A stretch of 64,000 nucleotides of DNA from a virus (IMGVR_UViG_2868569063_000004:32001-96000), one strand, 5' to 3'. Counted from the stretch's first letter, positions 44,754-63,107 are shown. Made by a program: numbers and translations. Notes: generated by a model not told the origin, from the letters alone.

Positions 44754-45089
44754 ATGAAGAAATTATTAGTTTTAGCATTAGCAACTATGATGGTTTCAAC
44801 CCCAGTATCAGCGGCTCCAACAACAGATGGAGAATGCAAAGACCTGTACCCTCTAACAGGTATAGTAACTGAAGTCCAGGAAGTAGATAAAGACACGGAC
44901 CTCGTAACTATGACATGTGCCAATGGAAATCAGTTCTCTTGGTATGTAGACAGCACAGATGATTGGTGTATCAATGACCTTGCATCTTGCATCATGAACT
45001 CCAACGGAACTGATGAAGTCTATGACGATGAAATTGTAGACGCTCACTATGTTGGCACATTAGACCAGTTATCACAATATACTGCATAA
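44754..45089 (+). CDS. Secreted hypothetical protein
   Basis: Signal peptide MKKLLVLALATMMVSTPVSA; paralog of 42739. Confidence 0.75.
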   Translation: MKKLLVLALATMMVSTPVSAAPTTDGECKDLYPLTGIVTEVQEVDKDTDLVTMTCANGNQFSWYVDSTDDWCINDLASCIMNSNGTDEVYDDEIVDAHYVGTLDQLSQYTA

Positions 45090-45195: not shown

Positions 45196-45420
45196 ATGTT
45201 AAAGAAAGTAACCAGAAGAGAAGCACAAAAAGCACTTGTTGCAGGAAATCCTGTATATTTGCTTCCGAATAGAATGCAAGTGAATTCACCTTGGGCGCAT
45301 CCATTCAAAGTGAAGACCCCTATGTCAGAAGAGAAATTTAATCGTCTGATAATGAAATATGAACATGCTTGTTGCACTGTAGATACAGGAACCGGAAGTT
45401 TCTGTTATATAGATGCTTGA
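45196..45420 (+). CDS. Hypothetical protein
   Basis: 74 aa with SD. Confidence 0.65.
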   Translation: MLKKVTRREAQKALVAGNPVYLLPNRMQVNSPWAHPFKVKTPMSEEKFNRLIMKYEHACCTVDTGTGSFCYIDA

Positions 45421-45445
45421 CAAGGGAACAGATGTTTGCTATGAT
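45417..45445 (+). promoter_or_regulatory. Sigma-A promoter heading the first tagged-gene array
   Basis: TTGACA-17-TATGAT. Confidence 0.7.
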
Positions 45446-45462: not shown

Positions 45463-46117
45463 ATGAAAATAATTTATACAACATTAATAGGACTGGGCTA
45501 TGTGTCCAAAGAGTCAAATAATAAATATACTGTAGAATTTCTACATGGAAATTATATTTTTGACTTTCCTAAAAAAATAGTAGAACCATTATTGGTTCAT
45601 AATACTCTTTATGAAGCGATTTTGCACAGGAAAGGAGAATGGAAATGAGACATATTTATGTGAAAACACCAGATGGTTTAGGTAAATTAAATTTTTATGA
45701 TGGATCATTATGGCATTCTCACTACATAGTAGACCATTATAAACATGATTCAAAGTTTTACTCTGGATACTATGAAGGAAGATATATAACTAACGCATCC
45801 TGCTATGGCAAAGAACATATCAAGTTTCTCAGGAAGAGACCGCTGATTGATCTGATCACCAAGAGAAAGGAATGACTATGCAGAACATATATGTATATAA
45901 TCGTAAAGATAAAATAGGAAAGCTGATATGGTATAGGGGTATAGTCCCTTACCCTTATGTAGTCACTTATAGTCATTCCTACAATAGAATATTTTTATAT
46001 AGTGGCTCAGTTGATGGTAGAGCTGTTATAAACTGTATGGTTTATAGTAAAGATGAAATCAAGCTCTTACATAAGAAACCGTTGAGACATTTTATAGAAA
46101 AGAGGCAAGGCAAATGA
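45463..46117 (+). CDS. Three coupled small proteins (45463-45648, 45639-45875, 45872-46117) with the C-terminal tag
   Basis: Ends TLYEAILHRK, PLIDLITKRK, PLRHFIEKRQ. Confidence 0.7.
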
Positions 46118-46320
46118 TAGTATACAAAATAAATGTCCTGCAAGAGTTGAAGCACAAAGGATATTCAACTTATGTCTTGCGGAGAGATAGAATCATGGGA
46201 GAAGCTCAGATACAAAAGATTCGGCAGGGTGAACTTGCTAGTAAAGAAACTCTCAATACAATCTGTCGATTATTGCAGATACAGCCCGGAGACTTGCTTG
46301 AATATGTGGAGGAGATATAG
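46114..46320 (+). CDS. Cro/C1-type HTH protein
   Basis: TLNTICRLLQIQPGDLLEY. Confidence 0.85.
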   Translation: MIVYKINVLQELKHKGYSTYVLRRDRIMGEAQIQKIRQGELASKETLNTICRLLQIQPGDLLEYVEEI

Positions 46321-46787
46321 ATGTTAGGAGAATACATTAAAGACCCATTTTATGGGTTAGGCAAAGTTATAAAATTCAGACCTGGCAGTAGTGAACTTGT
46401 GTACTTTTTCAAAGCAAATGATAACCTACATGATGGTGCAATAGAGCCAGGTTCCTGTCCAGACAACCATGGTTGGTGGTTTGGTTCTGACGACATTAAA
46501 AGAATGAAGTACCTTCCTCCGCTAGCATCATTAATAGAGAGGAGGCAACAATGAAAATAGGTGATATAGTATGGCGAAGCAATTCTGGTATGGGAAGAAT
46601 AATAGATATTAGATCTTCCTCAGCGCCATATCTAGTTTATTTTTATAAAGAAAATAACCGTTTGTATAATGGCAACGATAGAGGCCCAGATTGTCGCTAT
46701 TGGTGGTGCTTCAGAAGTTCACTTACTCTTGTCCGTTCTCTGTCTTTGTGCAAGCTAATAGAAAGGAGAAGAAATGCAACATCCTAA
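46321..46787 (+). CDS. Two paralogous small beta-barrel-like proteins (46321-46554, 46551-46787)
   Basis: GxGxI..LVYF.K.N..L..G...WW; tags PLASLIERR and SLCKLIERR. Confidence 0.75.
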
Positions 46788-47022
46788 AGAATTAAATATA
46801 GGTGACATAGTTTATCATAAATATTACGGTATAGGACAGATAGAAGATATTGACAAAGATCTTGGAGAACCATTCCAATATTTAGTCTATTACTATAAAG
46901 AAAACATTTCATTACACAATGGAAATGGTGGCTCAGATTACCACTATTAGTGGAGCTATGCTGAAGACCTGAAACTTATTTCCTCTGTCCGTACATTAAT
47001 AGAAAGGAGGCAACATGGTTGA
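46774..47022 (+). pseudogene. Third paralog with an in-frame amber codon
   Basis: TAG at 46948-46950 where paralogs have Trp; frame continues to VRTLIERRQHG*. Confidence 0.75.
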
Positions 47023-47335
47023 TTTAAGGAAGAAGCTCCGGTCTGGAATGATAGCTGTCACACCAGCAGGAAGCTATCTTGTTCTTACCGATTGCGAGAC
47101 GGCGAATTATGGCAGTCAAGATTTTTGTATTATTGGACCTGATGGTTTTATGATAGGCAGTAATTACGATGAAAATTTGAGCACTATTCGTGGCATTTGC
47201 TCTATAAAAGCTCTATATAAGTCAACTGTAAATGGACTTACTTATGAAATGAAATACAAAGATAAAGATTTAATTTGGACAAAGGATCCAAAAAATCTTA
47301 AAGAATTAATCATATCAAGGAGGTTTTCAAAATGA
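47015..47335 (+). CDS. Hypothetical protein with C-terminal tag
   Basis: Ends NLKELIISRRFSK. Confidence 0.75.
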   Translation: MVDLRKKLRSGMIAVTPAGSYLVLTDCETANYGSQDFCIIGPDGFMIGSNYDENLSTIRGICSIKALYKSTVNGLTYEMKYKDKDLIWTKDPKNLKELIISRRFSK

Positions 47336-47565
47336 AGACAGCAAAGGAAAGACTCTACAGAGTTGATTATGCCGAGGAAAAACTCGGTGACACAGTAACT
47401 AAGGAGATGATGAATACCAGTGAGTATGAAAAAGGCTACGGAATCATTCAAGCCCTTGAATCATGCGAAACAGACGGAGAACTTGACATATTAGATGAAG
47501 TTCTGACTGCTTTATGTGGTCATGGTATTGAGTATCTCACCAACTTAGTAGAATGTGACTGCTAA
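47332..47565 (+). CDS. Hypothetical protein
   Basis: 77 aa, ATGA-coupled; terminator at 47582-47606. Confidence 0.7.
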   Translation: MKTAKERLYRVDYAEEKLGDTVTKEMMNTSEYEKGYGIIQALESCETDGELDILDEVLTALCGHGIEYLTNLVECDC

Positions 47566-47636
47566 ACTATGAAATAAAATTAGAGCTGTGAAAACAGCTC
47601 TTTTTTATTATATAAAAAAGAAAAGAGGAAAACAAA

Positions 47637-48479
47637 ATGGAAAACATCGTTTACAACACAGTTATGAGCAACTTATTAATCTCTGGTACAAAGGCATGTG
47701 CAGTAATTCCAAGGGAATTGATGTCTGTCGATCCAGCTTACCAGCGGCTGGAAACACGAAATCATAGAAAAATTAAAGCAATGCATGACAATTTTGATCA
47801 TATGATTATGGATGCATTATTAGTGGTGCCACATCCAGAAGAGTGCACTTTTTCTATTGTAGACGGTTATGGTCGTTTTATTGCATCAGAAGGTATTTTA
47901 GATAAACTCGAATGTGTTGTTATTACTTCAGCCCCATCTGATCCAGATGAGAGAAGACATTTCGAAGCAAGTATCTTTACAAGACAGAGCTTGTATACTG
48001 AAAAAGTTACTCCGCTGCAGATGCATAAGGCAAATCTTATCTTAGGTGAACCGAATGCTGTAGCGTTGCAGGAAGTGGTTGATGAATATAATTTAAGCAT
48101 TGCAGAAGACAAAGGGGTAAGAAAACCAGGAACTATTGGTAGTTACACATCCGCTTACAGGATAATTAAAGCAAAAGGTAAGATAGCTTATGAAAGTATT
48201 ATATCTACTTGTTGTAAAGCTGGTTATAACTTATCAGGAGATGGATTATGTGACAAGATAATTAGGAACTTATATAAAATTTATTGCTTCTACGGAGATA
48301 TTGGATTAGTAAAAGTATTGCCTATTATGAGAGGAACTGAGCCAAGTACACTTAAAGCAAAAGGAATAGCTGCTTATCCAGAAAGAGTTGAATTAAGTCT
48401 TGCTCTCTACCTGCAGGACTATCTTGTATCTCTTGGTGAACCAAAACAGTTTAACGAGAAAGGAAAGAAAATTTCTTAA
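47637..48479 (+). CDS. ParB/Srx-like N-terminal domain protein
   Basis: VDPAYQR...IVDGYGR motifs. Confidence 0.7.
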   Translation: MENIVYNTVMSNLLISGTKACAVIPRELMSVDPAYQRLETRNHRKIKAMHDNFDHMIMDALLVVPHPEECTFSIVDGYGRFIASEGILDKLECVVITSAPSDPDERRHFEASIFTRQSLYTEKVTPLQMHKANLILGEPNAVALQEVVDEYNLSIAEDKGVRKPGTIGSYTSAYRIIKAKGKIAYESIISTCCKAGYNLSGDGLCDKIIRNLYKIYCFYGDIGLVKVLPIMRGTEPSTLKAKGIAAYPERVELSLALYLQDYLVSLGEPKQFNEKGKKIS

Positions 48480-48497
48480 ACAAGTTTGTAAAAAGTA

Positions 48498-48526
48498 TTG
48501 ACAAGTTTTACAAACTGGTTTATAAT
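48498..48526 (+). promoter_or_regulatory. Consensus promoter with overlapping inverted repeat
   Basis: TTGACA-17-TATAAT; AGTTTGTAAAA and TTTTACAAACT flank the -35. Confidence 0.85.
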
Positions 48527-48555
48527 GCAGTTACAGTTAAGAAAGGAGAAAACAA

Positions 48556-49215
48556 ATGGCAACACTTATTAGTTTATATAAAGATAACAGAATCACTTCA
48601 TCAGAGGTAGAATCTAAGGACATTGATATTGTCCTTGGATTCCTCTTCAAAAACTATGTCTTAGGAGAAGACATCACAGAGAACTTTGACTCAAAGTTTC
48701 TCTACATTGAGGACAGCAAGTTTAAAATGAAACCTCTAAACAAGAAAATAAAAACATTTTCGCAAGAAAAAGAGGATTCTGTAGAGGTTCTGATTCAGTT
48801 TGAGGAGCTCGCTAAGAGCTACGAAGCAGCTTATATCTTTGACCAGTATGAGGTATTCAAGTTTGAAAACGGTGACTATAAAGATCTGGATGAGAGAGAT
48901 TATAAACTCTCCATTTGTAAGCACTGCGGAAAGATTATTTCCGGATCTTTAGTCAATGATTATTGTCCAGAATGCTTCGTAACCTATGGAGTACAGGAAG
49001 TGTTTGAACAGATCCAGTCAGACGACAAAGAGCTGTATACAGAGTACGAGACAGTATCAAAAGTAATGAATACTGTTGAAGCATTCTACGAAAAAATCAA
49101 AGACAAGGGAACTTTAGCTGTACAGAGAGCAAGAGAAATCTCTGAACAGTACTTAGGAAAAGAGCAGATTCCTGAGGATCTCTATGAAACAATTTTAGGA
49201 GGATTTGTAGCATGA
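48556..49215 (+). CDS. Hypothetical protein with zinc ribbon
   Basis: CKHCG...YCPEC. Confidence 0.75.
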   Translation: MATLISLYKDNRITSSEVESKDIDIVLGFLFKNYVLGEDITENFDSKFLYIEDSKFKMKPLNKKIKTFSQEKEDSVEVLIQFEELAKSYEAAYIFDQYEVFKFENGDYKDLDERDYKLSICKHCGKIISGSLVNDYCPECFVTYGVQEVFEQIQSDDKELYTEYETVSKVMNTVEAFYEKIKDKGTLAVQRAREISEQYLGKEQIPEDLYETILGGFVA

Positions 49216-50741
49216 ATAAAGAAACAATGAAACAGGGTATGATTAAGGTTCTTAATATGTATGATATCCCTTGGGGTAATTCAGCCATTGACAAAATTAT
49301 CAACACATGGGCAGACAACAAAACCCCTTTGATTGAGTTATTAAGACATCATCCTAACTGGAATGATGAAAAATGCTATGTAGCATTTGATCAGAATATC
49401 AAGGGACAGCCAGACGAGGAGAAAATTTATAATTTCATTAATTGGATGATTATCAAGGGAAGACGCACAGATGCTTTGTTTGCACTGAGAGATTACAGAG
49501 AACAGCTTTTGGACGAACGAACAGCTTCTTTAATTAAAGAATGCTATCCTGATATTAAAGGTATTTCAGCAGGTCAGAAAACCTCAAGAGCAGTGAAGAA
49601 AATCTGTACACTTATAGGTATTACTTCTAATACCTATTCAGATTTTGAAAAGAGGTATGCCAAATATTCAGATGCAATCAATCCTCTTGACGTTGTTCGG
49701 CACACTATCCTGTCAGTTAATCCAGTTGATTATCTATTGTCCTCCAATGGAAACAGCTGGTCTTCTTGCCACACACTTGATAAAAACAATCCTAATGGGT
49801 TCTCAGGTTGTCACTGTTCCGGAACTATGAGTTATCTCCTTGATGGAACTACAATGGTTTACTATCAGGTAGATAAAGAGTACGACGGAAATGACTTAGA
49901 GTTCGAGCCGAAAATCATCCGTCAGTTATTCCATTATAAAGATGGAATCCTTGTACAGGGAAGACTCTACCCTCAATGTAACGATGGCAAAAACTCACTG
50001 TATACTCCAATTAGAGCACAGCTTCAGAAAATCATCGCTGATTGTTTGGTGGCTCCTAACCTTTGGAGAAAGAAAGGCGGCACCTCTGCTTGTTGCTCAG
50101 TTATTAATTCTGAAGGTACCCACTACAGAGATTATGAGTGCCAGAGTGAGTGCTCAGTAAGTAAGATTGTCAAAATGATTCCCAAGGGAAGAGTAGATAA
50201 TAGGCATATGACAGTTGGACATGATATCTACTGTGTAAAATGTGGGGATTGGCATGATATGGAAAGCACTCTTCTTTGTGAGGATTGTCATGATAACTAT
50301 GGTGACAGTGGATCTCATAGATGTTGTGATTGCGGTGATCGTTATGACGAAGATGAGATGTATCGTATCAACGGAGAATGGTATTGTAGTGGTTGTTCCA
50401 CTTATTGTGATCACTGCGGTAAAAGAGTACCCAATTCGAGTATTCATTATTACGGGGAGTTAGATGAGGACATCTGTGATGAATGTATCTCTGAAGATTT
50501 TTCCACTTGTGACTGTTGTGGAAAGTTAACTAACAATGATGATTTGACTTATATTGAATCTACAGATGAAAATGTTTGTGGCAGATGCTTAGAGAACAAA
50601 TATGCATATGTAGATACTGAAGATGAGTATTATCCCATTGAAAAAGTAAATACTTGCGTATGTGGACAAACTTACTTAATTGAAGAAGGTGACAAAGGAC
50701 TTTGTCCAGATTGTGTAGAAAAGGAGACCGGAGATGAGTAA
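49212..50741 (+). CDS. Hypothetical protein with tandem C-terminal CxxC repeats
   Basis: 509 aa; WSSCH and GRLYP motifs; about 10 CxxC-type units. Confidence 0.8.
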   Translation: MNKETMKQGMIKVLNMYDIPWGNSAIDKIINTWADNKTPLIELLRHHPNWNDEKCYVAFDQNIKGQPDEEKIYNFINWMIIKGRRTDALFALRDYREQLLDERTASLIKECYPDIKGISAGQKTSRAVKKICTLIGITSNTYSDFEKRYAKYSDAINPLDVVRHTILSVNPVDYLLSSNGNSWSSCHTLDKNNPNGFSGCHCSGTMSYLLDGTTMVYYQVDKEYDGNDLEFEPKIIRQLFHYKDGILVQGRLYPQCNDGKNSLYTPIRAQLQKIIADCLVAPNLWRKKGGTSACCSVINSEGTHYRDYECQSECSVSKIVKMIPKGRVDNRHMTVGHDIYCVKCGDWHDMESTLLCEDCHDNYGDSGSHRCCDCGDRYDEDEMYRINGEWYCSGCSTYCDHCGKRVPNSSIHYYGELDEDICDECISEDFSTCDCCGKLTNNDDLTYIESTDENVCGRCLENKYAYVDTEDEYYPIEKVNTCVCGQTYLIEEGDKGLCPDCVEKETGDE

Positions 50742-51705
50742 AAATAAATATAAAATTACAGAATTAGAAGAGATTTTGAGAATGAAACAAATGACTTTAA
50801 AGAGTCACCTGGAAGCCAAGTTGGAAGCAGCAGGTTATGAGCCTAAATCAGAAGATGGATTCCTCTATGCTAAGGGAACTTTCCCAGTACTCTTAGTTGC
50901 TCATATGGATACAGTACATGAAGAATGTGTCCAGAAAATCAAATACACTGGAGCAATCATGTCTTCTCCTCAAGGGATTGGGGGAGATGACCGGTGTGGC
51001 ATCTACGCTATTCTGCAAATTATTAAAGAGTATCATTGTTCTGTATTGTTTACAGAGGATGAAGAGAAAGGGTGCGTAGGAGCTGAGAAGTTTGCTGTAA
51101 GTGACTATATAGTAAACAATGATATAAATTATATCATTGAAATTGATAGAAGAGGGACCAATGACTGTGTATTCTACTCTTGTGACAATCCAGATTTTGA
51201 AGAGTTCATAGAGTCTACTGGATATTTCAAAACAGCATGGGGTTCTGTGAGTGATATATCAACAATTGCTCCGGCACTCGGTGTAGCAGCAGTCAATTTA
51301 TCTTCTGGTTATTTCGACGAACACACTACAAGAGAAACAATCAATGTAGAGGCATTACTTTCTACAATTGAAGAAGCGAAAAAGATTCTTGCTTTACCAT
51401 GCGAGGAACCATTTGAGTACATTGAAGCTGCCTATGGTGGTTATGGAAACTGGTGGAGAGATTATGATGAAGAAGCATCACCTATTAGCACTGATTACAC
51501 AACAGCTTATACAGATGATTGTACTTATATATTCTCGAAAGAGGAGAAGGCAAAGAAATTCTTCCATATTTATCTTCAGACTTACAGCGGAAATGAAATC
51601 TGTTGTGAAATCCTCGCAATAAATGAAATGGAAGCAATTGGTATGGCTTTAAGTCATTATCAGTATTATTCTGCTTGTGACATTATTGATATAAAATCAC
51701 AGTAA
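50734..51705 (+). CDS. M28-like zinc peptidase
   Basis: AHMDTV, GGDDRCG, FTEDEE, EIDR, EHT metal ligands. Confidence 0.8.
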   Translation: MSKNKYKITELEEILRMKQMTLKSHLEAKLEAAGYEPKSEDGFLYAKGTFPVLLVAHMDTVHEECVQKIKYTGAIMSSPQGIGGDDRCGIYAILQIIKEYHCSVLFTEDEEKGCVGAEKFAVSDYIVNNDINYIIEIDRRGTNDCVFYSCDNPDFEEFIESTGYFKTAWGSVSDISTIAPALGVAAVNLSSGYFDEHTTRETINVEALLSTIEEAKKILALPCEEPFEYIEAAYGGYGNWWRDYDEEASPISTDYTTAYTDDCTYIFSKEEKAKKFFHIYLQTYSGNEICCEILAINEMEAIGMALSHYQYYSACDIIDIKSQ

Positions 51706-51766
51706 AGGAGGAATGTTTATGCCAAAGTATATGATTGACCTCTAGCCCACTAAGAGGTTTTCATAT

Positions 51767-51804
51767 AAATTACAACTGAATATAGAAAAATTACAACTGA
51801 ATAT
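51767..51804 (+). repeat. Tandem 17-bp direct repeat
   Basis: AAATTACAACTGAATAT twice, about 21 bp apart. Confidence 0.7.
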
Positions 51805-51859
51805 GGGTAAAGATTAAAACAAACAACAAAAAACAAATTTCAAACAAGAATAGGAGATT

Positions 51860-52384
51860 ATGATTATGATGAACACAACTATTATTACAAAAATTATGGC
51901 AGCACTTGGACAGGACGAGCTTAAAGAACTCATCGGAGCACTTCAGGGAATGGTTGATGCACCAGAGACAGTACAGAAACATTGGGAGCCAACAGAAGGT
52001 GAGCAGTACTTCTATCTGTGGGGTACAGGAAAGAAAGACGGTGGAGTATTCACAGCAGAGAACCAGAAAGATGTGATGCGTTTAGCAGTAGGCAACTGCT
52101 TCAAGACTGAGGAAGAGAGAGATGCAGCCGCTGAGTATCTGATGATTGTAGCAGAGCTGAAACGCTTCGCCATTGATCACAACGATGAGATTGACTGGGA
52201 CGATCACTCTCAGAGAAAATACAAACTCTGCTGGAACAGAGAGACAGAGAAAGTTGATTCCACATGGAGCAGAAGGAAAATCACAGATGGTATTTACTTC
52301 AGCTCTCATGAGGTAGCAATGGCTGCTGTCGAAGCTGTAGGAGAGGATAGAATCAAAAAGTTCTATCTGCCAGATGCTGAGTAA
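51860..52384 (+). CDS. Hypothetical phage protein
   Basis: 174 aa; WEP..GE.Y and GNCFKTEEE motifs. Confidence 0.75.
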   Translation: MIMMNTTIITKIMAALGQDELKELIGALQGMVDAPETVQKHWEPTEGEQYFYLWGTGKKDGGVFTAENQKDVMRLAVGNCFKTEEERDAAAEYLMIVAELKRFAIDHNDEIDWDDHSQRKYKLCWNRETEKVDSTWSRRKITDGIYFSSHEVAMAAVEAVGEDRIKKFYLPDAE

Positions 52385-52602
52385 ACAGTAAAATAAACAG
52401 TTCTCTTGGGGTTCGACTCCCCAAGAGAATTATCAAGGAGCTATTATGGAATTGGATAAGTTATTAAAAAAGAGAAGTATAATAAGCTGCACAATCAAGG
52501 ACGGGATTTGTATTGTACAGTATGCTTCAAAGGAAATGAAACTATTAGACATATCAGGTATGAGCATTGCAGAAGTACTTGATTTTATATTGGAGGAATA
52601 AC

Positions 52603-54106
52603 ATGAAAGTTGGAGATAAAGTAATCGTTAATCCTAGACTGCCTAAATTGTGTGAAGCCATATGGGGGATCTCCCTGGAGTTAGTTAAAGATAGAATTAT
52701 GACTATAAAGAGTATAGGTAATGATGATGGCACATCTTATTGCTATGTAGAGGAAGAAACATATATATTTCCTTGTAGTATATTTATTCCTGTGGAAGAT
52801 ACTCTATTCTTAGCAATTCGCAAAAGGAGACAGTATGGGAAAAGGAGATAAAGTAATTTTTAGATCTAATACTCCTCGTATTCTATGGGGCGTAGATATA
52901 AATTATTTATTAGGAAATATATGTACCATAAAATCAATTATAGAACTAACTTCTAAAACTTTTGAAAGAAAAGCTTATGAGTTAGAAGAAGCTAGTAATT
53001 ATTGGTTTCCAGTAGAGGAATTCATTCCTTACAAAGGACTAATTGCACTAATTGATAAGAGGAGGAAACATGAAATATAAAGTTGGGGATAGAGTTATAG
53101 TTCGGAAAGATTTAGTTGGCGGATTGGAATATCCTTATTCGAATCCGTTATGCGGAAAGTTATATTTTGCTTCAGCAATGGAAAAATTTCGTGGGGAAAT
53201 GTATGAAGTAATAACAGTTTCAGGTGAGTATGATTATGGTTGTGAAACTTATGAATTATCTCTGGGAGAAGAGGCATTCAGATGGCTGTTCAACGACGCA
53301 ATGTTGATGTCTGCTAGTGGGTTAAGGAGCTTGATATGCAAGAGAAATATAAAATAGGAGACATAGTAAGAGTTAGAAGTAATTTGAAAGGTAATACAAG
53401 ATATTATTATGATGGTAGTGATAATGAATATTTGTTTTTTAACATTGCCATGCAAAAATTCTGTGGCCATGCATATAAAATCATAGATAAAGTTTCATCA
53501 TTTTATCCTGGCTATGTTAACTATAGACTAGCACTAGGAGATGAAACATGCGAGTGGGTTTTCAGTGACATAATGTTAGAACCTGTTCAGTGTTTAGGGG
53601 GACTTATATGCAAGAGAAAAAAGAATTAAAAGTTGGAGATTGGGTTCGTGTAAAACGTAACCTAGCAGTTCATGAGATAGGGGTGAAGTATCTCGGAAAA
53701 GTTTATAGAATCAATAGAATAAGTTATACAGGTTACTATCTATCTGGTACTCCAGAAGGATACTGGTACAGATCATCACTTATTCCAGTAGGAAATTTAA
53801 GTAGACTTGTAGAAATTAGAAAGGAAAATCATGAGATATAAAGTCGGAGACAGAGTAGTGATTAGAAAAAATTTAGTTAGCGGGTGGTATTACCATTATG
53901 AAAATTCAATGGGAAGATTATTTTTTAACAGCCACATGTCTAAGCTTTGTGGGAAAGTTTGTGTAATAACTAAAATTACAGATCCTGAATTGGATGAATA
54001 TTTTTTGTTAATAGGTAATGAAGAAGTAGAGTGGTATTTTAACAACGCAATGTTAATGCCAATAAAAGGTTTAAAACGTTTGATATTGTTAAGGGAGGTG
54101 ATTTGA
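52603..54106 (+). CDS. Array of six KOW/SH3-like small paralogs (starts 52603, 52835, 53070, 53336, 53608, 53831)
   Basis: N-terminal (Y)K(V/I)GDxV; overlapping stop/start codons; all carry the C-terminal tag. Confidence 0.8.
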
Positions 54107-54242
54107 TGAAGATATTTACTCTTCAACAAGATATTCATGGGAGATGGTTCGGCTACTGTAAGGAGACAAAAGAATATACACCAAGCTTCATCAAATGCAA
54201 GAACTTGAAGAAAATGCTTATCTGGAAAGGTTGGGGGTGGAA

Positions 54243-55056
54243 ATGATTGAACTTAGAGACTGTATTGTGGGAGTTAAAGATGAAAAAGAATATGAAAAAG
54301 TAATTCAGATTGCGAAAGAACAAGGATGTGAGTGGAATTCTGGAGACTCTTTAGATTATATCTACTGTACATTTCCAACAAGATTGTTTTTTGATAAAAG
54401 AGGAAGGGTCACATTTGGGGGATATCATGAAAAATATTGTGACTATCATTGTAAAAATTTGATGAGTAGATTACAAGAATTGATAATTATAAGACAGAAG
54501 GGAAAGTTATGGTTGATCTGAGAGATAGTACAGTATTGGTTAACAATGTAGAAGAATATATAGCTGTGGCTAAAATTGCTAAGAAACAAGGCTTTAGATG
54601 GGTGAGTGGGGCCCCCCTTTAAATAGAGTCCTTTGTGAGTTTCCAACGAGATTAGAATTTAGTAGGAGATATGAAACATATTGGGGTTCTAGCCGTGGCA
54701 GATGTGCACGAGATTATCCTAAATGCATGGCTCTAGTTGGAGGATTGCGGAGACTCATAATGGTCAGAAAGGAAACGTAAATGATAGATTTGGAATGTTG
54801 TACTGTTTTGGTGAATAATAAAGCAGAATATATAGCGTTAATCAAAGAAGCTCAAAAGCAAGGTTTCACATGGGCATCTGGGTATGATTTAACTAATATA
54901 TTTTGTGATTTCCCAACAAGATTACGCTTTAATGGAGAGTGTAAAGTATATTATAATTCTTCCGCCTATTATTATAATCGTGATTACAAGTGCAAGGAAA
55001 TAGTTGGTGCATTAAGAAATATGATATTGAAAAGAAAAGAGGGACAACTATGTTAA
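54243..55056 (+). CDS. Three paralogs (54243-54521; 54509-54780 frameshifted; 54781-55056)
   Basis: M(I/V)xL...EY....A.KQG..W.SG..L....C.FPTRL.F shared; C-terminal tag. Confidence 0.75.
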
Positions 55057-55463
55057 AAGAAAAATTATCTATTGAGCGGAAAAAGGCTGTAATGATTACA
55101 GCCGATTTTACAGCACCTACAACAGAAAGCTATGCAATGGCATGGCTAAAACTGTGCAACAACGCAAGAGAGTACAAAGACGTTATCTGGAGAGTAGAGA
55201 ATGATTCAGGAAATAGGGTATATGTCTGGTGCAATCCAAAGTATAAAGAAACAGTAATAGAATTCCTCACAGGAATAGTTTACTATCATCAGGAAGATAA
55301 AGGGCCTACATCAGTAGGAAAAGTTATTGAGGCAGAAGATGTTACAGTTGGTTTCCCGGTGTATGAGTATGAGAGTACATGTTCTTCACATGAGGAGCAA
55401 TGGGGCATAGATATTGATAATTCAATTATGTTTTGGGGAGCAGTAAAAGAAATTTTTTATTGA
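55050..55463 (+). CDS. Hypothetical protein
   Basis: Start MLKEKL. Confidence 0.7.
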   Translation: MLKEKLSIERKKAVMITADFTAPTTESYAMAWLKLCNNAREYKDVIWRVENDSGNRVYVWCNPKYKETVIEFLTGIVYYHQEDKGPTSVGKVIEAEDVTVGFPVYEYESTCSSHEEQWGIDIDNSIMFWGAVKEIFY

Positions 55464-55464
55464 G

Positions 55465-55935
55465 GTGATTTTTATGAAAAATAAGGAAAATTTTGCAAAA
55501 GAAATTTTAGATATTGCTTGCAAAGGGTATCCATTTTCAGTTACAAAGTCAGGTGAAATTACTTTTTGTGATTGTTTTAAATGTGATATGTGCAAATTTT
55601 ATGTTCCTGCTGATTATAAAAGTTGCAGAATTAGGCGATATGAATGGTCAGAATTAGAATATGTAGAGAAACATACAATTACATCAAAAGAAAAGAAATT
55701 TCTTGATCTACTTTTGCCTAATTATAAATATATTGCAAGAGAGAAAAATGGTTTCTTATTAGTCTATACAGAAAAGCCAATTAAAATATTAGAAACTTGG
55801 GGATTAGCAAACTGTGCATTAATGAATATGTTTGATATTAAATTTGATTTTATCAAATGGGAAGATGAAGAACCCTGGAGTATTGAAGATTTAAAGAATC
55901 TGGAAGTAAGAGATGATGGAAAATCTAACGGCTAA
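55465..55935 (+). CDS. Hypothetical phage protein
   Basis: YKYIARE...FDFIKWEDEEPWSIEDL. Confidence 0.75.
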   Translation: MIFMKNKENFAKEILDIACKGYPFSVTKSGEITFCDCFKCDMCKFYVPADYKSCRIRRYEWSELEYVEKHTITSKEKKFLDLLLPNYKYIAREKNGFLLVYTEKPIKILETWGLANCALMNMFDIKFDFIKWEDEEPWSIEDLKNLEVRDDGKSNG

Positions 55936-56003
55936 AATAAGAAAATCAATAGTTGTACAGAATGGACCACTAACAAATTTATATTAATGGAGAAGAAATC
56001 ATT

Positions 56004-57080
56004 ATGGATAAATTAATAGCAAAAGAAGTAGAATTTAACGGAGATATTATTAAAGCAGCACAGGATCCTGATGGAAATATTTGGGTTGGTGCTCGCTGGG
56101 TATGTGAAGCTATCGGTTTAGATGATAACCGGATCAAATATGAAAGAAGAAAAATGCAAACGGATTCAGTAATTTCAAAGGGGGTACAAAATTTTACCCT
56201 CCTTACCAATGGCGGGAATCAGAATGTTATGTGCTTACAATTAGATTATTTACCATTATGGTTGGCTAAAATCTCAATTACTCCAACTATGAAAAAGGAA
56301 ATGCCGGGAATAGCAGAAAAACTTGTAGCATATCAGCTCAAAGCAAAAGATGTACTGGCAGCAGCTTTCCTTGAGAAAAAAGTTAATAATCCAAACGTTA
56401 TTCAGTTACAGCTGCCAGATTTCAATAACAAAATTGAAGTATTAGAAAGAAAAGTAGATAAAATCTTTGAAGATATGGGGCGTTTAGCTTCTATGATGGT
56501 TCAGGAGAAAATTGTTACGACACCTATCCCAGTGAAGAAAGTAGAGAATCCTGGTAAAAAATGGAAAAATGATATGTACCAGATGATTGATGCTCTTACC
56601 ACTTGTGACAAGTTCTCTGATCGTGGCTCTGTAATGAAAACTGTATATAAGTATATGAATAAAAATTATGGTGTCTGTTGGGATCAGGAAGTGAAAGATT
56701 ACAAAGAAAAATATAATCCAGTAAGTAAATTTAGTACTTATGATGTTGTCTATGCCAATGATACTTTAAGATCTATCTTCAGTGCTGCGTTAGGAGATCT
56801 GTATGAAAAATATAAATCAATCTGTAATCAGGATGCAACAGATTCTATTATTGCTCCTCTCGTAGAAAAATATGGAGATAAGAGCAACGGAGGAATGGTT
56901 ACATATAGAAAAGTATACAAAAAGATGGGAGAAATGAGTCCGATCAATTGGCATAATTTAGAAGTTCGTTATATTAACAAACATGGCAAAGCAGGAGCAA
57001 GAAGAAAGAAAATCATTTCTTCTAATCCGGAAATGCTGAGAAAATTTAAGAATGCAGTTGATGTCATGATGGTTGGGTAG
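56004..57080 (+). CDS. Phage antirepressor (P22 Ant N-terminal-like domain)
   Basis: VEFNGD...WVCEAIGL...LPLWLAKI...LVAYQLKAKDVLAAAF. Confidence 0.8.
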   Translation: MDKLIAKEVEFNGDIIKAAQDPDGNIWVGARWVCEAIGLDDNRIKYERRKMQTDSVISKGVQNFTLLTNGGNQNVMCLQLDYLPLWLAKISITPTMKKEMPGIAEKLVAYQLKAKDVLAAAFLEKKVNNPNVIQLQLPDFNNKIEVLERKVDKIFEDMGRLASMMVQEKIVTTPIPVKKVENPGKKWKNDMYQMIDALTTCDKFSDRGSVMKTVYKYMNKNYGVCWDQEVKDYKEKYNPVSKFSTYDVVYANDTLRSIFSAALGDLYEKYKSICNQDATDSIIAPLVEKYGDKSNGGMVTYRKVYKKMGEMSPINWHNLEVRYINKHGKAGARRKKIISSNPEMLRKFKNAVDVMMVG

Positions 57081-57083
57081 ATT

Positions 57084-57908
57084 ATGGTAAAGATAGGAAA
57101 GAAATATAAAGTTCGTTCTTGGGATGATATGGAAAGAGAGTTCGGAACCGCTCAAACTGGGGATGAAACATATATACCATGTTTGGCATTTTTTGTTAAA
57201 GACATGTGTAGATTTTGTGGAACTACTATAACTGTTTCATATTTTATATACAACAATGTTTTTAGAATCGAAGAAGATAACGGTAGATATATGTGGTCTA
57301 CAGACATGATCACACCATTAGGAGATTTATATGAAGCGATACAAAGTAGGAGACATAGTTCAGATTCGTCAATGGGATGATATGGTTAAAGAATTTGGTG
57401 TTAATTATTATGGTGTTATTCGATGTAACAATTGCGGTTTTGTAAGAGAAATGAAAAAATATTGTGGCCAAAAGTTGCGGATACGTGCTATACAGAAATT
57501 TGATGATATCTATTATTATTTGAATACTGCAGATACATGGACTTTTACAAGTGAGATGTTTGAAAAAGGAGACTTATCAATGTTAATCACAAGGAGACAG
57601 GAATGTATAAAGTAGGACAGAAAGTAAGAGTTAAATCTTGGGGGCAGATGGCACAGGAGTACGGAGTTACAGATGGAACTATAAACACGCCATCAAGTTT
57701 TGTCCCAGATATGCGATGCTTTTGTGGGAAAGAGTACAGAATTAAAGCAATATATGATCCCGTTAATAACATATATGATTTAAAAACTATTACGGGAGAC
57801 GAAGATGAAAATAGAGAACTGCTTTATTTCTGTTGGGATGAAGTGATGCTTATTCCAATCGCTGGGAAACTAGAAACTATGATTAAGGAGAGAAGAAAAA
57901 ATGTATAA
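57084..57908 (+). CDS. Three KOW-like paralogs (57084-57380, 57331-57615, 57603-57908)
   Basis: K(I/V)G....(R/K).W..M..E(F/Y)G...F...M...CG...W...M; C-terminal tag. Confidence 0.8.
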
Positions 57909-58965
57909 ATACTATGATAAGAAAAACAACTTTGTAGAAACATTTAATCCGGAGACAGGATTCTATATCCGGTCCGATGATCTTACAACAGGAAAAGAAC
58001 CATTTATGAGAAATTTTCCTGCTTTGTTAGATATTGGTGTTATGGGACATTGCGTCCATGGGGCATCTGGTTTGTGTATTCAGTCAGGGGTTCAGTGTTA
58101 TCAGAATGGATTACACACACAGGAGCCTAATATGTCCCTTGAGAATTTCAAGAGAATAGTAGATGAATGTAAAGGAAAAACATTTCAGTTTGCTCTTGGC
58201 GGCAGAGGAGATGTAGACCAGCATGAAAATTTTGAAGAAATCCTTAAGTATTGTTGTTCACAAGGGATTGTGCCAAACTTTACAAGTTCCGGTTTAGGAT
58301 TCAATGAAAAAATTGTTTCCTTATGTAAAGAATATTGCGGAGCCGTAGCTATTTCTTGGTATAGAAGTGAATATACACAGAAAGCGATTGATATGTTAGT
58401 ATCTGCAGGAGTTACTACCAATATTCATTATGTCCTTGGACGGAATTCTATTGATGAAGCTATTGAACATTTGCAGCAGGAAGATTTTCCTGATGGTATC
58501 AATGCAGTAATTTTCTTGTTGCATAAGCCAGTAGGTTTAGGAACTCAGGCAAATGTATTGTCTCCTGATGATGAAAGAGTCAAAGAATTTTTCTCTTTGA
58601 TTGATAAACATGATTATAAATTTCAGATTGGATTTGATTCATGTTCTGTGCCTGGACTGTTGAATTTTACAGAAGAGATTTTAAATTCTACTCTGGAACC
58701 GTGTGAAGGAGCAAGATTTTCTGGGTATATTACCTCTGATATGAAGATGCTGCCATGCAGCTTTGACAATCAGGAACTTAAGTGGGCAGTTGATCTTAAT
58801 GAACACACTATTCAGGAAGCATGGGATTCAGATGTGTTCGATGATTTCAGAAGCCATTTCAGGAATTCTTGTAGAGGTTGTAGTCGTCAGTGTGATTGCT
58901 TAGGTGGATGCCCGATCAGAAGAGAAATTGTCTTGTGCACAAAAGAGGAGAAAGATTTATGCTAA
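57901..58965 (+). CDS. Radical SAM protein with SPASM domain
   Basis: Expanded Cys motif GHCVHGASGLCIQSGVQCYQ; ALGGRGD; PCEGA...LPCSF...CRGC...CLGGC. Confidence 0.85.
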   Translation: MYKYYDKKNNFVETFNPETGFYIRSDDLTTGKEPFMRNFPALLDIGVMGHCVHGASGLCIQSGVQCYQNGLHTQEPNMSLENFKRIVDECKGKTFQFALGGRGDVDQHENFEEILKYCCSQGIVPNFTSSGLGFNEKIVSLCKEYCGAVAISWYRSEYTQKAIDMLVSAGVTTNIHYVLGRNSIDEAIEHLQQEDFPDGINAVIFLLHKPVGLGTQANVLSPDDERVKEFFSLIDKHDYKFQIGFDSCSVPGLLNFTEEILNSTLEPCEGARFSGYITSDMKMLPCSFDNQELKWAVDLNEHTIQEAWDSDVFDDFRSHFRNSCRGCSRQCDCLGGCPIRREIVLCTKEEKDLC

Positions 58966-59279
58966 CAATTGGGCTAAGTGCTGTATTAATAGTGACATTG
59001 ATAATTTTATTCGCTTGCATAAGCAAAAATATAAATTTGAAAATGGAAGTAGAAGAACTAAAAATAAAGAACGAGACCCAACGCTTGAGTTATTCTAGCG
59101 TATACCGAGATTATGTAAAGTTACTAATGAAACCTGATGCATTAAAGCCTACTACATCAGACATAAAAGAAGCTGTTCACTATGCAATGATTAAAGCTCA
59201 TCCTGACAATGGAGGTAAACAAGAAGATTTTGTAAAGTTTAGAAAGCTATATGAGAGGATGAATAATGAATACAGATAA
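58959..59279 (+). CDS. Membrane-anchored protein with C-terminal J-like domain
   Basis: N-terminal TM; IKEAVHYAMIKAHPDNGG. Confidence 0.75.
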   Translation: MLTIGLSAVLIVTLIILFACISKNINLKMEVEELKIKNETQRLSYSSVYRDYVKLLMKPDALKPTTSDIKEAVHYAMIKAHPDNGGKQEDFVKFRKLYERMNNEYR

Positions 59280-59794
59280 ACTTAAATTTCTTAAACTTGG
59301 CGGGCAATATAAAGTAAAATCATTTGCTCGTTTAATGGAAGAATATGGTTCTGATAACTCTAGTGGAATGCCGAATGTCATCTGCGGTTTTAATAAGCAA
59401 ATGAAAAAATTGTGTGATCAAAAAATTACGATACAAGATACATTCTATAAGCATGAAGATAAGTTTTATCAAATAAAAGAAGCAAGATATTGTTGGAATA
59501 GTCAGATGTTAGAACTTCCTTTAAGTACATTGATCTATAGGAGGAAACATGGATAGAAATGAAATATATTTCAAGTTAAGTGGATTTTGCTCCGATCATT
59601 TTTGCTTTAATTGTCCAATATTTTTCATAAATCCCAAGTATAAATGTGGTAATGGTTGTGGATACAGTTTATGTGGAAATCCGGTGCCGCTATCAGAAGC
59701 ATTGAAGTATTATTCTATCATATTTGAAAAACAGAATCTGAGAGCACTTATAGTAAGAAGAAGGGGGTATTATAAATATGAAAGAAGGATATAA
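59266..59794 (+). CDS. Two small tagged proteins (59266-59556, 59549-59794)
   Basis: Ends PLSTLIYRRK and NLRALIVRRR. Confidence 0.7.
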
Positions 59795-60224
59795 ATTAGA
59801 AGACACTATTATCCTCAATGGAAAAGTAGGGTGGGTAAACACAGGAGATGATGCTGATAGCATTATTAGAATACAAAATATTCAGAAAGTAAAAAGATTT
59901 TCTGGTGAAGAAATTATTGTATCTAATAATGGATTTGCTTTTTCAAAAGAAATGGAAAGTCGATGCGGGTGGCTTGACAGATATGCAAGTATTCAAATGC
60001 TTACAGGAGATACACCTATTGATATGGATCACATTGATGAGACAAAGATTGTATCAATGGAAGGAATCACTGAGTCTGAATATTATCATCGGTATAGTGA
60101 TTATACTGGATATCTTTGGACTGAAGAAGAATTCAAATGTGGCGGTCATGATCTGTTAAAAATCTTAGAAGGGAACATGGGAAAATATATTCATATGGAA
60201 ATTGAATTATATTCGAGGTGTTGA
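59778..60224 (+). CDS. Hypothetical protein
   Basis: 148 aa; GGHDLL motif. Confidence 0.7.
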   Translation: MKEGYKLEDTIILNGKVGWVNTGDDADSIIRIQNIQKVKRFSGEEIIVSNNGFAFSKEMESRCGWLDRYASIQMLTGDTPIDMDHIDETKIVSMEGITESEYYHRYSDYTGYLWTEEEFKCGGHDLLKILEGNMGKYIHMEIELYSRC

Positions 60225-60225
60225 T

Positions 60226-60621
60226 ATGACATTTGAAGAAGCTAAACAGCGTTCGGATTACTGTTTTAGACTCAACGGAATCCAACTTCTAATAAGGAAT
60301 ATAAGAGAAGAGCATTTAGAAATTGATCTCGATAATGGTCCTCTTATAGGTAAAGCTGTATTGGAAATAGGTTATGTTGATATTGAAGTAAATATTTCTG
60401 TTCTCGGAATGTTTAACGAAATACCAACATATAAACCGACTATTGAATATTTTACTTGTTTAAAAACGGAGAATGATTGGGAGCCTATTGAATATATTGG
60501 GACTGGAGCAGATGTGGATTGGTGGAGTAACAGATGGAAAGAAGAGTTGGAAGAAGATATGTTTTTAGCATTAAATGAATATGTGGAAAGTGCAGGACTC
60601 AGCTATGATGAACCAAATTGA
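60226..60621 (+). CDS. Hypothetical protein
   Basis: Start MTFEEA with SD GAGGTG. Confidence 0.7.
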   Translation: MTFEEAKQRSDYCFRLNGIQLLIRNIREEHLEIDLDNGPLIGKAVLEIGYVDIEVNISVLGMFNEIPTYKPTIEYFTCLKTENDWEPIEYIGTGADVDWWSNRWKEELEEDMFLALNEYVESAGLSYDEPN

Positions 60622-60635
60622 AGGAGGAAAGAAGA

Positions 60636-61427
60636 ATGGATAAAGCTTGGTTAGAACAGAAAATAAAAGAATGTGAAAGTGCCCGGCCTGAGATTGAAAA
60701 AATACTTAGGAACAAGCTGCATTTGGATGATAAGGAATTTGAGAAAATCATGGATTGTCTCGAATCTCCTTGTTATACTACTGCAATACAAGAATTAAAC
60801 ATGGTACTTATTATGAAATATGTGGATGATTCTACAAAAACTTATGAAGAATATAAAGAATTATCAGAACTTACAGGAATTGAAGAGCTGTTTTATAAAT
60901 ACACCAAGAAAAATTGGATTGATGCATATTTAGATGGAGAGCCAATGGAATTTGATGGAGATATTATTATCACAGATCCTTGTTATATCATGAAAGAAGA
61001 TGATGATTGGGCAACATGTGCCTACGGAGAGGATATGGAAGCACTTGGAATAACTCACTATATGACAAGAGATACTCTCTATGGAGATTGGAGTTGTACT
61101 ACTTTTGATACTGATACAAAAGAAGCTATTGGTGAGTTTTGTGCAGATGCTGGTTTAGTGTCAGTATTTTTATTAGATGAAGTCCTGAAATATAATCCAT
61201 ATTATAAAGATCATTTAAAAAATAAATGGACGGTTACTTGGATTAAAGATTTCAAAGGAACTGTAGAATTTGTCGTTAAGCACATTGAGGGCTACTATGA
61301 AGAAGATACCGACTACTGGAAAAAAGGTGACTACTGGGAAGATTATGTTTTAGAAGTAGTAGGACATGGCATTAACAAAGTTACTGGTAAACCAATTAAC
61401 TTTGTTGGAAAGCAAACAGGTTTATAA
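60636..61427 (+). CDS. Hypothetical phage protein
   Basis: ITDPCY...TLYGDW...FCADAGLV motifs. Confidence 0.75.
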   Translation: MDKAWLEQKIKECESARPEIEKILRNKLHLDDKEFEKIMDCLESPCYTTAIQELNMVLIMKYVDDSTKTYEEYKELSELTGIEELFYKYTKKNWIDAYLDGEPMEFDGDIIITDPCYIMKEDDDWATCAYGEDMEALGITHYMTRDTLYGDWSCTTFDTDTKEAIGEFCADAGLVSVFLLDEVLKYNPYYKDHLKNKWTVTWIKDFKGTVEFVVKHIEGYYEEDTDYWKKGDYWEDYVLEVVGHGINKVTGKPINFVGKQTGL

Positions 61428-61428
61428 T

Positions 61429-61650
61429 ATGATTCCGAACAAAAAAGGATTACAAGTTATTATGAAAGGCACTTTTACTCCAGGATGGGAAAATAGAATT
61501 TTTACATTAACTGGAGAAAAACAAATAAATGATTGGGTAAATGTCTACTATCCAGTAATGGAGAATGTTAATCCTGTCAATAGATGTTTTATGGTGCCGC
61601 TAAATTCGTTAAAATTATTAATTTTAAATAAACAAGAAAAGGAGAACTAA
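61429..61650 (+). CDS. Small hypothetical protein
   Basis: Start MIPNKKG; ends SLKLLILNK. Confidence 0.55.
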   Translation: MIPNKKGLQVIMKGTFTPGWENRIFTLTGEKQINDWVNVYYPVMENVNPVNRCFMVPLNSLKLLILNKQEKEN

Positions 61651-61654: not shown

Positions 61655-61921
61655 ATGAAAATGAGCTATGATGTACAGGTTGAGGAGTTAGGAGCAAACA
61701 GAAGAGGTCTTGTTACTTCAGAAGAGGGAAGAGCTATTGTTGAGTTTATGAAAACAAGTAGAGCCAACATGTGCTTTGAGTACGATGATGAGGCTGAAGC
61801 TAAAAGAAGAGCTTCTGCAGTAATGAATTGTTGCAAGAGACTCAATGAAGAAGGCGAAAAAGAAGTTATTAAATACGCTAAACGTGGAAATAAAATCTAC
61901 GTCATTAAAGTGACGGAATAA
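61655..61921 (+). CDS. Hypothetical protein
   Basis: 88 aa with SD. Confidence 0.7.
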   Translation: MKMSYDVQVEELGANRRGLVTSEEGRAIVEFMKTSRANMCFEYDDEAEAKRRASAVMNCCKRLNEEGEKEVIKYAKRGNKIYVIKVTE

Positions 61922-61932: not shown

Positions 61933-62352
61933 ATGTTAGACATTAACAAGAGAGTGAGGTGTGAGGGAACAACTGTTGCAGAGATGATTGAAGCTCTGCA
62001 GCGGTTGCCTCAGGATGGTGTTGTCCATTTCACAGGGAAAAAGAAAGGTTATATCCACTGTGATCCAGAGAGTAAAACAATAGATTTTGATACTGATGAA
62101 CTTAGTGCCATGTATGAAGAAGTTTCAGAAGAACCTAAGGAATACTATCTAGTGTATATAGATACTTATTTCAAAGAATATGTAGCCGTAAAAGCACAGA
62201 ATCATTTCGAAGCCGAAGCAAAAGCACGAGATTTAAGCCAGATAAACTTTAATGGAATGAATAAAGAAGTCTATGTTTGTGCTACATGTAATGCTCATAC
62301 AAAAACTTATGCACAAGAACGTAATTACAGAATTATAGAGGAGGACGTATGA
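61933..62352 (+). CDS. Hypothetical protein
   Basis: 139 aa; TVAEMIEALQRLP. Confidence 0.7.
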   Translation: MLDINKRVRCEGTTVAEMIEALQRLPQDGVVHFTGKKKGYIHCDPESKTIDFDTDELSAMYEEVSEEPKEYYLVYIDTYFKEYVAVKAQNHFEAEAKARDLSQINFNGMNKEVYVCATCNAHTKTYAQERNYRIIEEDV

Positions 62353-62621
62353 AATTAAGAATAGGCTTTGTAACTAATAGTTCCTCATCCAGTTTTACTA
62401 TTGCTAAAAGTGATTTAACAGATGAACAGATTGAGAAGATTAAAAATTACTTTGAAGTTGCAAAAGAAGTTGGAATGAATGATTTCGATGATTTGTGGGA
62501 TATTGATGAAACAAATTTTGGAATTAGAGGCTTTACATGTATGGACAATGGAGATATGAACAAGTTTCTAAGGCTAATTGGTATTAACAGAGATATTGTT
62601 GAATGGGAGGATTGGTCATGA
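62349..62621 (+). CDS. FVTNSSSSSF-motif protein 1
   Basis: MKLRIGFVTNSSSSSF. Confidence 0.8.
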   Translation: MKLRIGFVTNSSSSSFTIAKSDLTDEQIEKIKNYFEVAKEVGMNDFDDLWDIDETNFGIRGFTCMDNGDMNKFLRLIGINRDIVEWEDWS

Positions 62622-63076: not shown

Positions 63077-63107
63077 AAATGTAGGTATTAGAAAGGGTGT
63101 GGAGAAA

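Follow-up and report, generated by a model that had tools for sequence, protein, structure and literature searches.

A C-terminal L-x-x-L-I-x-x-R tag on small, fast-evolving phage proteins as a possible docking helix

Why should some twenty small phage proteins with dissimilar bodies end in one and the same short peptide? The question is raised by a stretch of viral DNA of 64,000 nucleotides (IMGVR_UViG_2868569063_000004:32001-96000; the whole stretch is referred to as the window, and positions are counted from its first letter). Twenty-one plus-strand genes, located in four arrays between 45463 and 59794, encode proteins of 60-106 aa with ends of the form [G/P/S/T/N]-L-x-x-[L/A/M]-I-x-[R/K]-R-[R/K/Q] (the tag, numbered from its Leu), followed by 2-10 more residues of variable sequence. 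A first-pass annotation, made from the sequence alone, had listed about 22 such proteins in three or four arrays. Twenty-one strong examples were recovered where it had placed them, and the number of arrays was fixed at four; the 22nd protein (61462-61650) carries Lys at position 8 and was not counted. The neighbouring helix-turn-helix gene, antirepressor gene (P22_AR_N) and SPASM enzyme gene were free of the tag, as had been said, and so was an M28 peptidase gene near the arrays. No description of the L-x-x-L-I-x-x-R motif was found in full-text literature searches. The reading preferred here, at a probability of roughly 0.5, is that the tag is a docking helix for one common putative partner.

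The distribution of the tag was determined over the whole 122,874-bp virus record of which the window is part (classed in IMG/VR as a provirus, approximately 76% complete). A loose regular expression, [LIVM]..[LAMIVF][IV]..R within the last 20 residues, matched 20 plus-strand open reading frames (ORFs), every one of them in 45463-59794. The same expression gave two plus-strand and four minus-strand matches in the rest of the genome, all spurious, and no true tagged gene was found outside this interval. With a greedy gene call, 19/35 plus-strand genes matched within the interval versus 3/165 elsewhere (Fisher p = 2.7e-14); the expression matches 0.56% of random 20-mers of proteome composition. 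A logo built from 88 unique tags of the clade described below had G/P/S/T/N at position -1, Leu at position 1 (94%), Leu, Ala or Met at 4, Ile (93%) or Val at 5, Arg or Lys at 7 (58%), Arg at 8, and Arg, Lys or Gln at 9. When position 8 was left free in the search, Arg occupied it in 103 of the 114 C-terminal L..[LAM]I matches. Arg is strict at this position; positions 7 and 9, though equally purine-rich and equally constrained by the Shine-Dalgarno (SD) sequence of the next gene, mix R, K and Q. The fixed residues L1, [L/A/M]4, I5 and R8 lie on one helical face (i, i+3, i+4, i+7), and the hydrophobic pair is followed by the Arg at a distance of one turn.

The overlap with that SD sequence had been seen in the first-pass annotation, which noted that the Arg codons often double as the SD of the following gene. 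This was the case for 18/21 tags, the next start codon lying 7-19 nt past the first base of the R8 codon. Its further point, that the overlap does not explain the L..LI helix, was borne out by codon usage, by orthologues and by the other coupled genes. Five Leu codons are used at L1 and three Ile codons at I5. Across 15 orthologue sets from related phages, amino-acid differences were 2.5-fold fewer in the tag core than in the bodies (0.062 versus 0.157), at a synonymous divergence of 0.073 versus 0.074. The amino-acid and synonymous differences between orthologues were 0.000 and 0.135 at L1, 0.026 and 0.170 at L4, and 0.035 and 0.076 at I5; because these positions are near-invariant in amino acid at normal or high synonymous change, they carry a signature of purifying selection on the tag peptide. 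In the tail after R8, synonymous divergence was low (0.026). Thirty-one other small coupled genes of the genome lack the motif, and three tags have the full form though the next ATG falls inside or ahead of the tag. No DNA repeat family spans all tags, only small sub-families (D9, D11) sharing DNA, and no RNA structure was detected at the 21 junctions (mean z = +0.37; 0/21 below -2). From these comparisons it is concluded that the SD influences the codon choice and the basic flavour of the tail and does not account for the motif.

Protein bodies were compared by BLAST and by profile-profile comparison with the tag removed (N-terminal domains only). Families C, D and E and a short D-like form (D') were joined in one SH3-like superfamily (probability 90%). 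Families A and B had a weak link to each other (23%) and to the SH3-like superfamily (11%), and families F, G, H and I had a probability of <=2.5% to all other groups. By this comparison the bodies comprise at least six profile-unrelated groups, and the tag is not the property of one shared fold. Pfam, PHROGs and NCBIfam contained no family for any tagged protein except weak SH3-type matches and phrog_7488, whose match excludes the tag, and nothing useful for the tagged proteins was returned by a sequence search of solved structures. Window proteins scored 17 bits against PF18346 (SH3_15, Mind bomb REP-like; cut-off 24 bits); 3/6 tandem-repeat relatives, themselves found with the window profile, passed it at 26-39 bits.

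The AlphaFold2 (AF2) model of a family D member had a predicted local distance difference test score (pLDDT) of 86, with the SH3-like barrel part above 90. Its terminal tag helix (residues 85-92) had a pLDDT of ~50-60 and was not confidently packed on its own domain. A low-confidence helix behind a high-confidence barrel is as expected for an appendage that would fold on binding. In Foldseek, the family D model matched structures of Mib repeats with a probability of 0.98-0.99 and that of SPbeta YorP with one of 0.94, at E-values >0.04. The family F model was of low confidence (pLDDT 49) and had an alpha/beta pattern with a long C-terminal helix (18 residues, tag at the end); it was too poor for a fold search. 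ESM Atlas searches with families F and H gave only unnamed viral clusters and a RegA-like match at 0.82, which is chance level.

The portal protein has ~30% identity at best to cultured relatives, namely SPbeta-like, Sundance, 949-type and Tsamsa-type siphoviruses of Firmicutes, and the phage is an uncultured SPbeta-like gut phage. Among 50,697 phage records, nothing matched the family E body by tblastn. The host may be placed, weakly, in Lachnospiraceae on a single match of 34% identity to a phage-like contig from the bin of a Lachnoclostridium metagenome-assembled genome (MAG). Synteny is shared with 19 IMG/VR loci and 3 Logan contigs. In each related locus (12-20 kb), 10-21 ORFs match the regular expression in the direction of the genes and 0-1 in the opposite direction (14-21 in the case of 20-kb loci), and in the complete 162.6-kb relative G027 all 16 tagged genes lie inside one 14-kb stretch. 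The tag is confined to one clade of gut phages.

Out-of-clade relatives of the main SH3_15-like family were found to lack the tag, a matter that the first-pass annotation had marked for checking. A profile of families C, D and E matched 6142 proteins at E <= 1e-3 among 1.84 billion representatives. Most of these have 2-8 tandem copies of the domain, and their matches stop at profile position 77-80, ahead of the tag. Among the best 150 matches, 12 short proteins match through the tag, all of which look like members of the tagged clade, and four short outsiders stop right after the last strand with no tag. On the Lachnoclostridium MAG contig an SH3_15-like domain occurs without the tag in a 187-aa fusion with another domain. 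The inter-repeat linkers of the tandem-repeat relatives are short and acidic and contain no tag; an origin of the tag as a former linker was rejected. Word-based searches with families D, F and H returned clade members only. In family H, L1, L4, I5 and R8 were unchanged in 51/53 cluster representatives, down to 59% identity, with x3 varying between E and Q.

Tagged genes evolve much faster than their untagged neighbours: mean identity across 22 related loci was 51-91% for tagged genes versus mostly 90-99% for the untagged genes interleaved with them. Frameshifted, truncated, chimeric and fused variants are common in the relatives, among them an F-E chimera whose junction is a microhomology of three residues. 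The genome studied here has two broken tagged genes, 46774-47022 with an in-frame TAG and 54509/54598-54780 with a frameshift. The TAG at 46948-46950 corresponds to Trp in the family B paralogues. Because the G027 orthologue is intact and reads through with Trp, the TAG is explained by a nonsense change from TGG, or by an error of sequencing, and not by recoding. Frameshifts at a T/A run also affect many database relatives of family F and point to slippage or assembly errors as frequent events. A 46-aa ORF (54106-54246) and the F gene that follows it (54195-54521) form a single 135-aa protein in the relative P0073. A sigma-A-type promoter-like site close to consensus precedes array 1, and a terminator-like hairpin follows it; both are pattern matches only, and the arrangement fits early transcription by the host polymerase.

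According to the docking-helix reading, the tag would form a 9-10-residue amphipathic helix after a Gly/Pro/Ser/Thr/Asn cap, behind a fast-evolving 'head' domain. The helix alone would be disordered or loosely attached and would fold on binding. Its binding site would be a hydrophobic groove, acidic at the rim, in a single receptor from host or phage, and all 16-21 heads would be brought to the same place or passed to the same machine. Because Leu1, Ile5 and Arg8 are strict, a stereospecific protein groove is favoured over generic membrane binding, which would be more tolerant. The 3' half of the tag (codons 7-9, AGR/AAR-rich) doubles as the SD of the next gene, and tag, ribosome-binding site (RBS) and start codon thereby make up a compact junction module, which would be copied at each gene duplication or recombination within the plastic arrays. 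Unrelated bodies would have the same tail because this module travels with duplication and recombination. Two points are inferred: binding of the helix to a partner, and the use of a single partner by all tagged proteins. A fuller version of the scheme is put forward more tentatively. One putative receptor would read the C-terminal L-x-x-L-I-x-x-R on 16-21 fast-evolving mini-proteins of unrelated folds, the label being fused to the RBS of the next gene, and a single recombination would give a captured gene both coupling and address.

A shared docking or targeting helix on a diversified library had already been proposed in the first-pass annotation. What stands of that proposal is that the conservation is at the protein level and is not a matter of SD, repeat or one fold, that the bodies evolve fast and that homologues outside the clade are without the tag; no partner was identified, and a hub protein, capsid loading and a Clp degron were not told apart. 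Several observations weigh against docking. No receptor was found. The R8 codon is always AGR, with CGN in 0/97 unique tags versus ~33% CGN genome-wide, and an RNA-level (SD) constraint therefore contributes at position 8. Every tagged gene precedes a coupled gene, so that the function of the tag and coupling are not fully separable. In the fusion variant P0038 the tag is retained as an internal linker; a free C-terminus is therefore not strictly required, at least in rare variants. The helix is only ~2.5 turns long, and four fixed residues carry limited information. Ten of the 21 tagged genes (C, D, D', E) belong to the single SH3-like superfamily, and part of the spread of the tag is therefore plain paralogy. 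The earlier count of at least five unrelated N-terminal families holds at the level of sequence profiles, but 'unrelated' was for this reason overstated. A phage ParA/MinD-type ATPase was considered as receptor and rejected, as none is encoded. One untagged gene of the region, 51860-52384, is its second most conserved (99.0% mean identity; 99.3% for 61655-61921) and has no family match. The N-terminal part of its product contains an L-K-E-L-I stretch that equals the family H tag core minus the Arg, and the product is a candidate receptor or regulator.

As a special case of docking, the helix could be a turnover tag, by which a protease system (host ClpXP, ClpCP, Lon or FtsH, or an adaptor, possibly with the phage ClpP) would keep the early effectors short-lived. 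This is unlikely. The early regulators of lambda are protease-labile, the record is classed as a provirus, and the strong sigma-A-type promoter-like site at the start of array 1 fits early expression. Among the phage's own genes, one for a full-length protein of the ClpP family (97 bits; 28524-29141, minus strand) lies directly downstream of that for a PhoH-like ATPase, and another specifies a p97/NSF-like AAA ATPase. This ClpP, however, may have no other role than that of the head maturation protease. The AAA ATPase has a wide distribution in phages among whose relatives no tag was observed; being common to many Firmicutes and E. coli phages, it was rejected as a tag-specific reader. No Clp-type (AAA_2) unfoldase was found in five clade genomes, one of them complete. 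The 2-10 variable residues after the motif are unlike ssrA-type degrons with their defined free end, and the tag therefore does not fit a carboxylate-dependent degron. Self-association is a slightly smaller chance, and also unlikely: the tails would di- or oligomerise the mini-proteins (perhaps as mixtures) or stabilise the small domains, and would spread with the gene junction by recombination. Relatives elsewhere link the same SH3-like modules covalently in 2-8 repeats, so that an assembly of separate modules is conceivable, but the linkers of those tandem repeats are short, acidic and unlike the tag. Fusion variants do exist. The helix is amphipathic and in family F ends an 18-residue helix; a stable coiled coil would need more than the 9-10 residues that follow the Pro/Gly cap in A, B and D. 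AF2 gives no confident packing of the helix on its own domain, and the same four residues are fixed on unrelated folds.

It is improbable that the peptide is an evolutionary passenger without a specific partner, in a junction module (last codons, SD and ATG) kept mainly for translational coupling and spread by recombination. The SD overlap, the invariable AGR codon, the low synonymous divergence after R8, the DNA shared within sub-families D9 and D11 and the formation of chimeras at microhomologies would all agree with it. L1, L4 and I5, however, lie upstream of the SD and are fixed as amino acids while their synonymous change is normal or high. Arg is strict at position 8 but not at 7 and 9, the 31 small coupled genes have no tag, the junctions show no RNA structure, and no single DNA repeat covers the tags. 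The same lack of structure (Rfam not searched) and of a repeat family over all tags, together with conservation that is codon-phased with free wobble positions, leaves a DNA- or RNA-level element (a repeat, protein-binding site or structure that merely resembles a peptide motif) barely credible, even though most tags are fixed in position with respect to the following start codon. Loading into the capsid is decidedly improbable: the tag would bind the procapsid interior or scaffold, and a pre-made effector library would be injected with the DNA, like T4 internal proteins or encapsulin cargo. The architecture is alike, with unrelated fast-evolving bodies and a conserved terminal peptide of hydrophobics and terminal Arg/Lys (PMC3012670, PMC7925596), and the arrays are hyperplastic. 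The tagged genes nevertheless belong to plus-strand operons of early type, which have a sigma-A-like promoter, and the head genes are ~27 kb away on the opposite strand (putative capsid gene 17773-18852, minus strand, its identity from position only). No head protein terminus resembles the tag, scaffold mimicry was rejected, and there is no Gly hinge or GSL element and no conserved protease site beside the tag. The tag as a follower peptide, by which a radical-SAM/SPASM-type enzyme (57901-58965) would recognise and modify the tagged proteins, is very improbable. Translational coupling links the enzyme gene to three tagged genes (array 3), and the enzyme weakly resembles peptide-modifying SPASM maturases. 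Only these 3/21 adjoin it, however, the enzyme has no RRE-sized N-terminal domain (by reading of the sequence), and the bodies have no conserved Cys/Ser/Thr-rich core. Its full-length homologues (28% identity) occur in RB43-like T4-type phages, in which we know of no such tagged arrays, and a downstream family with a Ser-rich N-terminal leader is a likelier substrate set.

The docking-helix reading was also set against known terminal peptides. The capsid targeting sequence (CTS) of T4, the system closest in concept, stands at the N-terminus of polymorphic internal proteins of T-even phages, which it directs to the scaffolding core, and the prohead protease cleaves it off (PMC3012670). As with the phage tag, a short terminal peptide is the sole element shared by diverse, fast-evolving small proteins from plastic loci, and in T4 it acts as an address; the phage tag, known here from genes alone, differs in being C-terminal and helical, in having no conserved flanking cleavage motif and in lying in early-type operons. 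Encapsulin peptides, which come closest in architecture, are extended, of LGI type with a Gly hinge/GSL element, and are read by an HK97-fold shell through two hydrophobic anchors and a terminal Arg/Lys that meets an acidic patch (PMC7925596). They too are C-terminal peptides behind a flexible linker on unrelated proteins, but the tag has helical spacing and no Gly in its core, and the putative capsid gene is far off on the other strand, whereas an encapsulin cargo gene adjoins the shell gene. In the ssrA tag, the MuA-type basic tail and the ClpX-binding tail of SspB the signal is at the extreme end, with defined last residues, and some of these combine hydrophobic and basic residues. Each is a short tail common to unrelated proteins and read by one machine; in the phage the motif is followed by 2-10 variable residues, and no Clp-type unfoldase is encoded. 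Because it fails the defining features of each system, the tag is filed as a shared terminal address peptide distinct from T4 CTS, encapsulin peptides and ssrA-type degrons. The FtsZ C-terminal peptide and the contact helix of MinE likewise place hydrophobic residues at i, i+3 and i+4 before basic ones, and the FtsZ peptide is also C-terminal behind a flexible linker. The Lachnospiraceae sequences (a host family itself weakly assigned) have Leu instead of Ile at 5, Arg at 9 instead of 8 and an invariant Pro in FtsZ. Mimicry of MinE or the FtsZ tail was rejected on these disagreements at fixed positions, and the resemblance is generic.

If one receptor reads the tail, the hub through which the whole early-protein library acts would be identified by one pull-down with a peptide of 12 residues. 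About twenty orphan genes would then gain a testable function, and foreign proteins given the tag could be directed to the same site in Firmicutes. With address and RBS fused, phage accessory arrays would have a concrete mechanism for the recruitment of genes. Positions of the tagged genes and of the features that bracket array 1 are collected in the table.

Table. Tagged genes, tag cores and associated features of the arrays (window positions)
Feature	Family	Position	Strand	Tag core	Remarks
Sigma-A-type promoter-like site		45417-45445	+		11/12 consensus match, extended -10 TG, directly upstream of first tagged gene; consensus match only
Tagged gene, 61 aa	G (singleton)	45463-45648	+	45607-45633	
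Tagged gene, 78 aa	A	45639-45875	+	45843-45869	
Tagged gene, 81 aa	A	45872-46117	+	46082-46108	Phe at position 4
Tagged gene, 77 aa	B	46321-46554	+	46522-46548	
Tagged gene, 78 aa	B	46551-46787	+	46746-46772	
Tagged gene, broken	B	46774-47022	+	46987-47013	In-frame TAG 46948-46950; Val at position 1
Tagged gene, 106 aa	H (singleton)	47015-47335	+	47297-47323	
Untagged gene		47332-47565	+		Terminator-like hairpin after
Terminator-like hairpin		47582-47601	+		Closes first array; pattern match only
Tagged gene	C (SH3-like)	52603-52851	+	52804-52830	Ala at position 4
Tagged gene	C (SH3-like)	52835-53080	+	53039-53065	
Tagged gene, 95 aa	D (SH3_15-like barrel)	53070-53357	+	53322-53348	Modelled; next gene's ATG inside tag
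Tagged gene	D	53336-53629	+	53594-53620	Next gene's ATG inside tag
Tagged gene	D' (short D-like form)	53608-53841	+	53797-53823	Val at position 5
Tagged gene	D	53831-54106	+	54071-54097	
Tagged gene	F (alpha/beta, not SH3-like)	54243-54521	+	54471-54497	Tag is terminal part of longer C-terminal helix
Tagged gene, frameshifted	F	54509-54780	+	54745-54771	54509-54622 plus 54598-54780
Tagged gene, 91 aa	F	54781-55056	+	55012-55038	Low-confidence model
Tagged gene	E (SH3-like)	57084-57380	+	57327-57353	Next gene's ATG just after L1
Tagged gene	E	57331-57615	+	57574-57600	
Tagged gene	E	57603-57908	+	57870-57896	Coupled to SPASM-type enzyme gene 57901-58965
Tagged gene	E	59266-59556	+	59521-59547	
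Tagged gene, 81 aa	I (singleton, Cys-rich)	59549-59794	+	59738-59764	
Borderline, not a member		61462-61650	+		Lys at position 8

Some features of the genes named above as possible partners were also recorded. The PhoH-like ATPase and ClpP genes (28524-30167, minus strand) are ~6 kb from the portal gene, outside the head module, and are followed by a GIY-YIG homing endonuclease gene. The AAA ATPase (G000:C1:107840-108940; L043:1276-2376) is a classic AAA protein of 366 aa encoded 12 kb beyond the window, closest to NSF and to the D2 domain of p97/Cdc48. Its gene adjoins a kinase/HD (Pnkp-like) gene, and phages of Enterococcus and other Firmicutes have full-length homologues of the ATPase (43-47% identity). 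The SPASM-domain protein (57901-58965) has non-canonical Cys spacing in place of CxxxCxxC, and its full-length homologues at 28% identity were from RB43-, RB16- and Miro-type T4-like phages. Several otherwise dissimilar proteins encoded in 62349-64000 have a near-invariant Ser-rich N-terminal leader; it is perhaps these that the SPASM enzyme acts on.

Further small genes of the region and of its relatives were noted in passing. The small protein encoded at 58959-59279 has a transmembrane segment at its N-terminus, and close to its C-terminus a His-Pro-Asp motif like that of J-domains was seen by eye; it has no Pfam, NCBIfam or PHROG match. A distant phage-like contig (L024, a Lachnoclostridium MAG contig) carries at 2500-6600 a nicotinamide adenine dinucleotide (NAD) salvage set comprising nicotinamidase, Prs-like, Nampt-like, macrodomain and NadE proteins. 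The 111-aa protein encoded at 44754-45089 has a signal-peptide-like N-terminus and is fast-evolving (mean 72% identity across relatives) although its neighbours are conserved, and is perhaps a surface protein or an exclusion protein.

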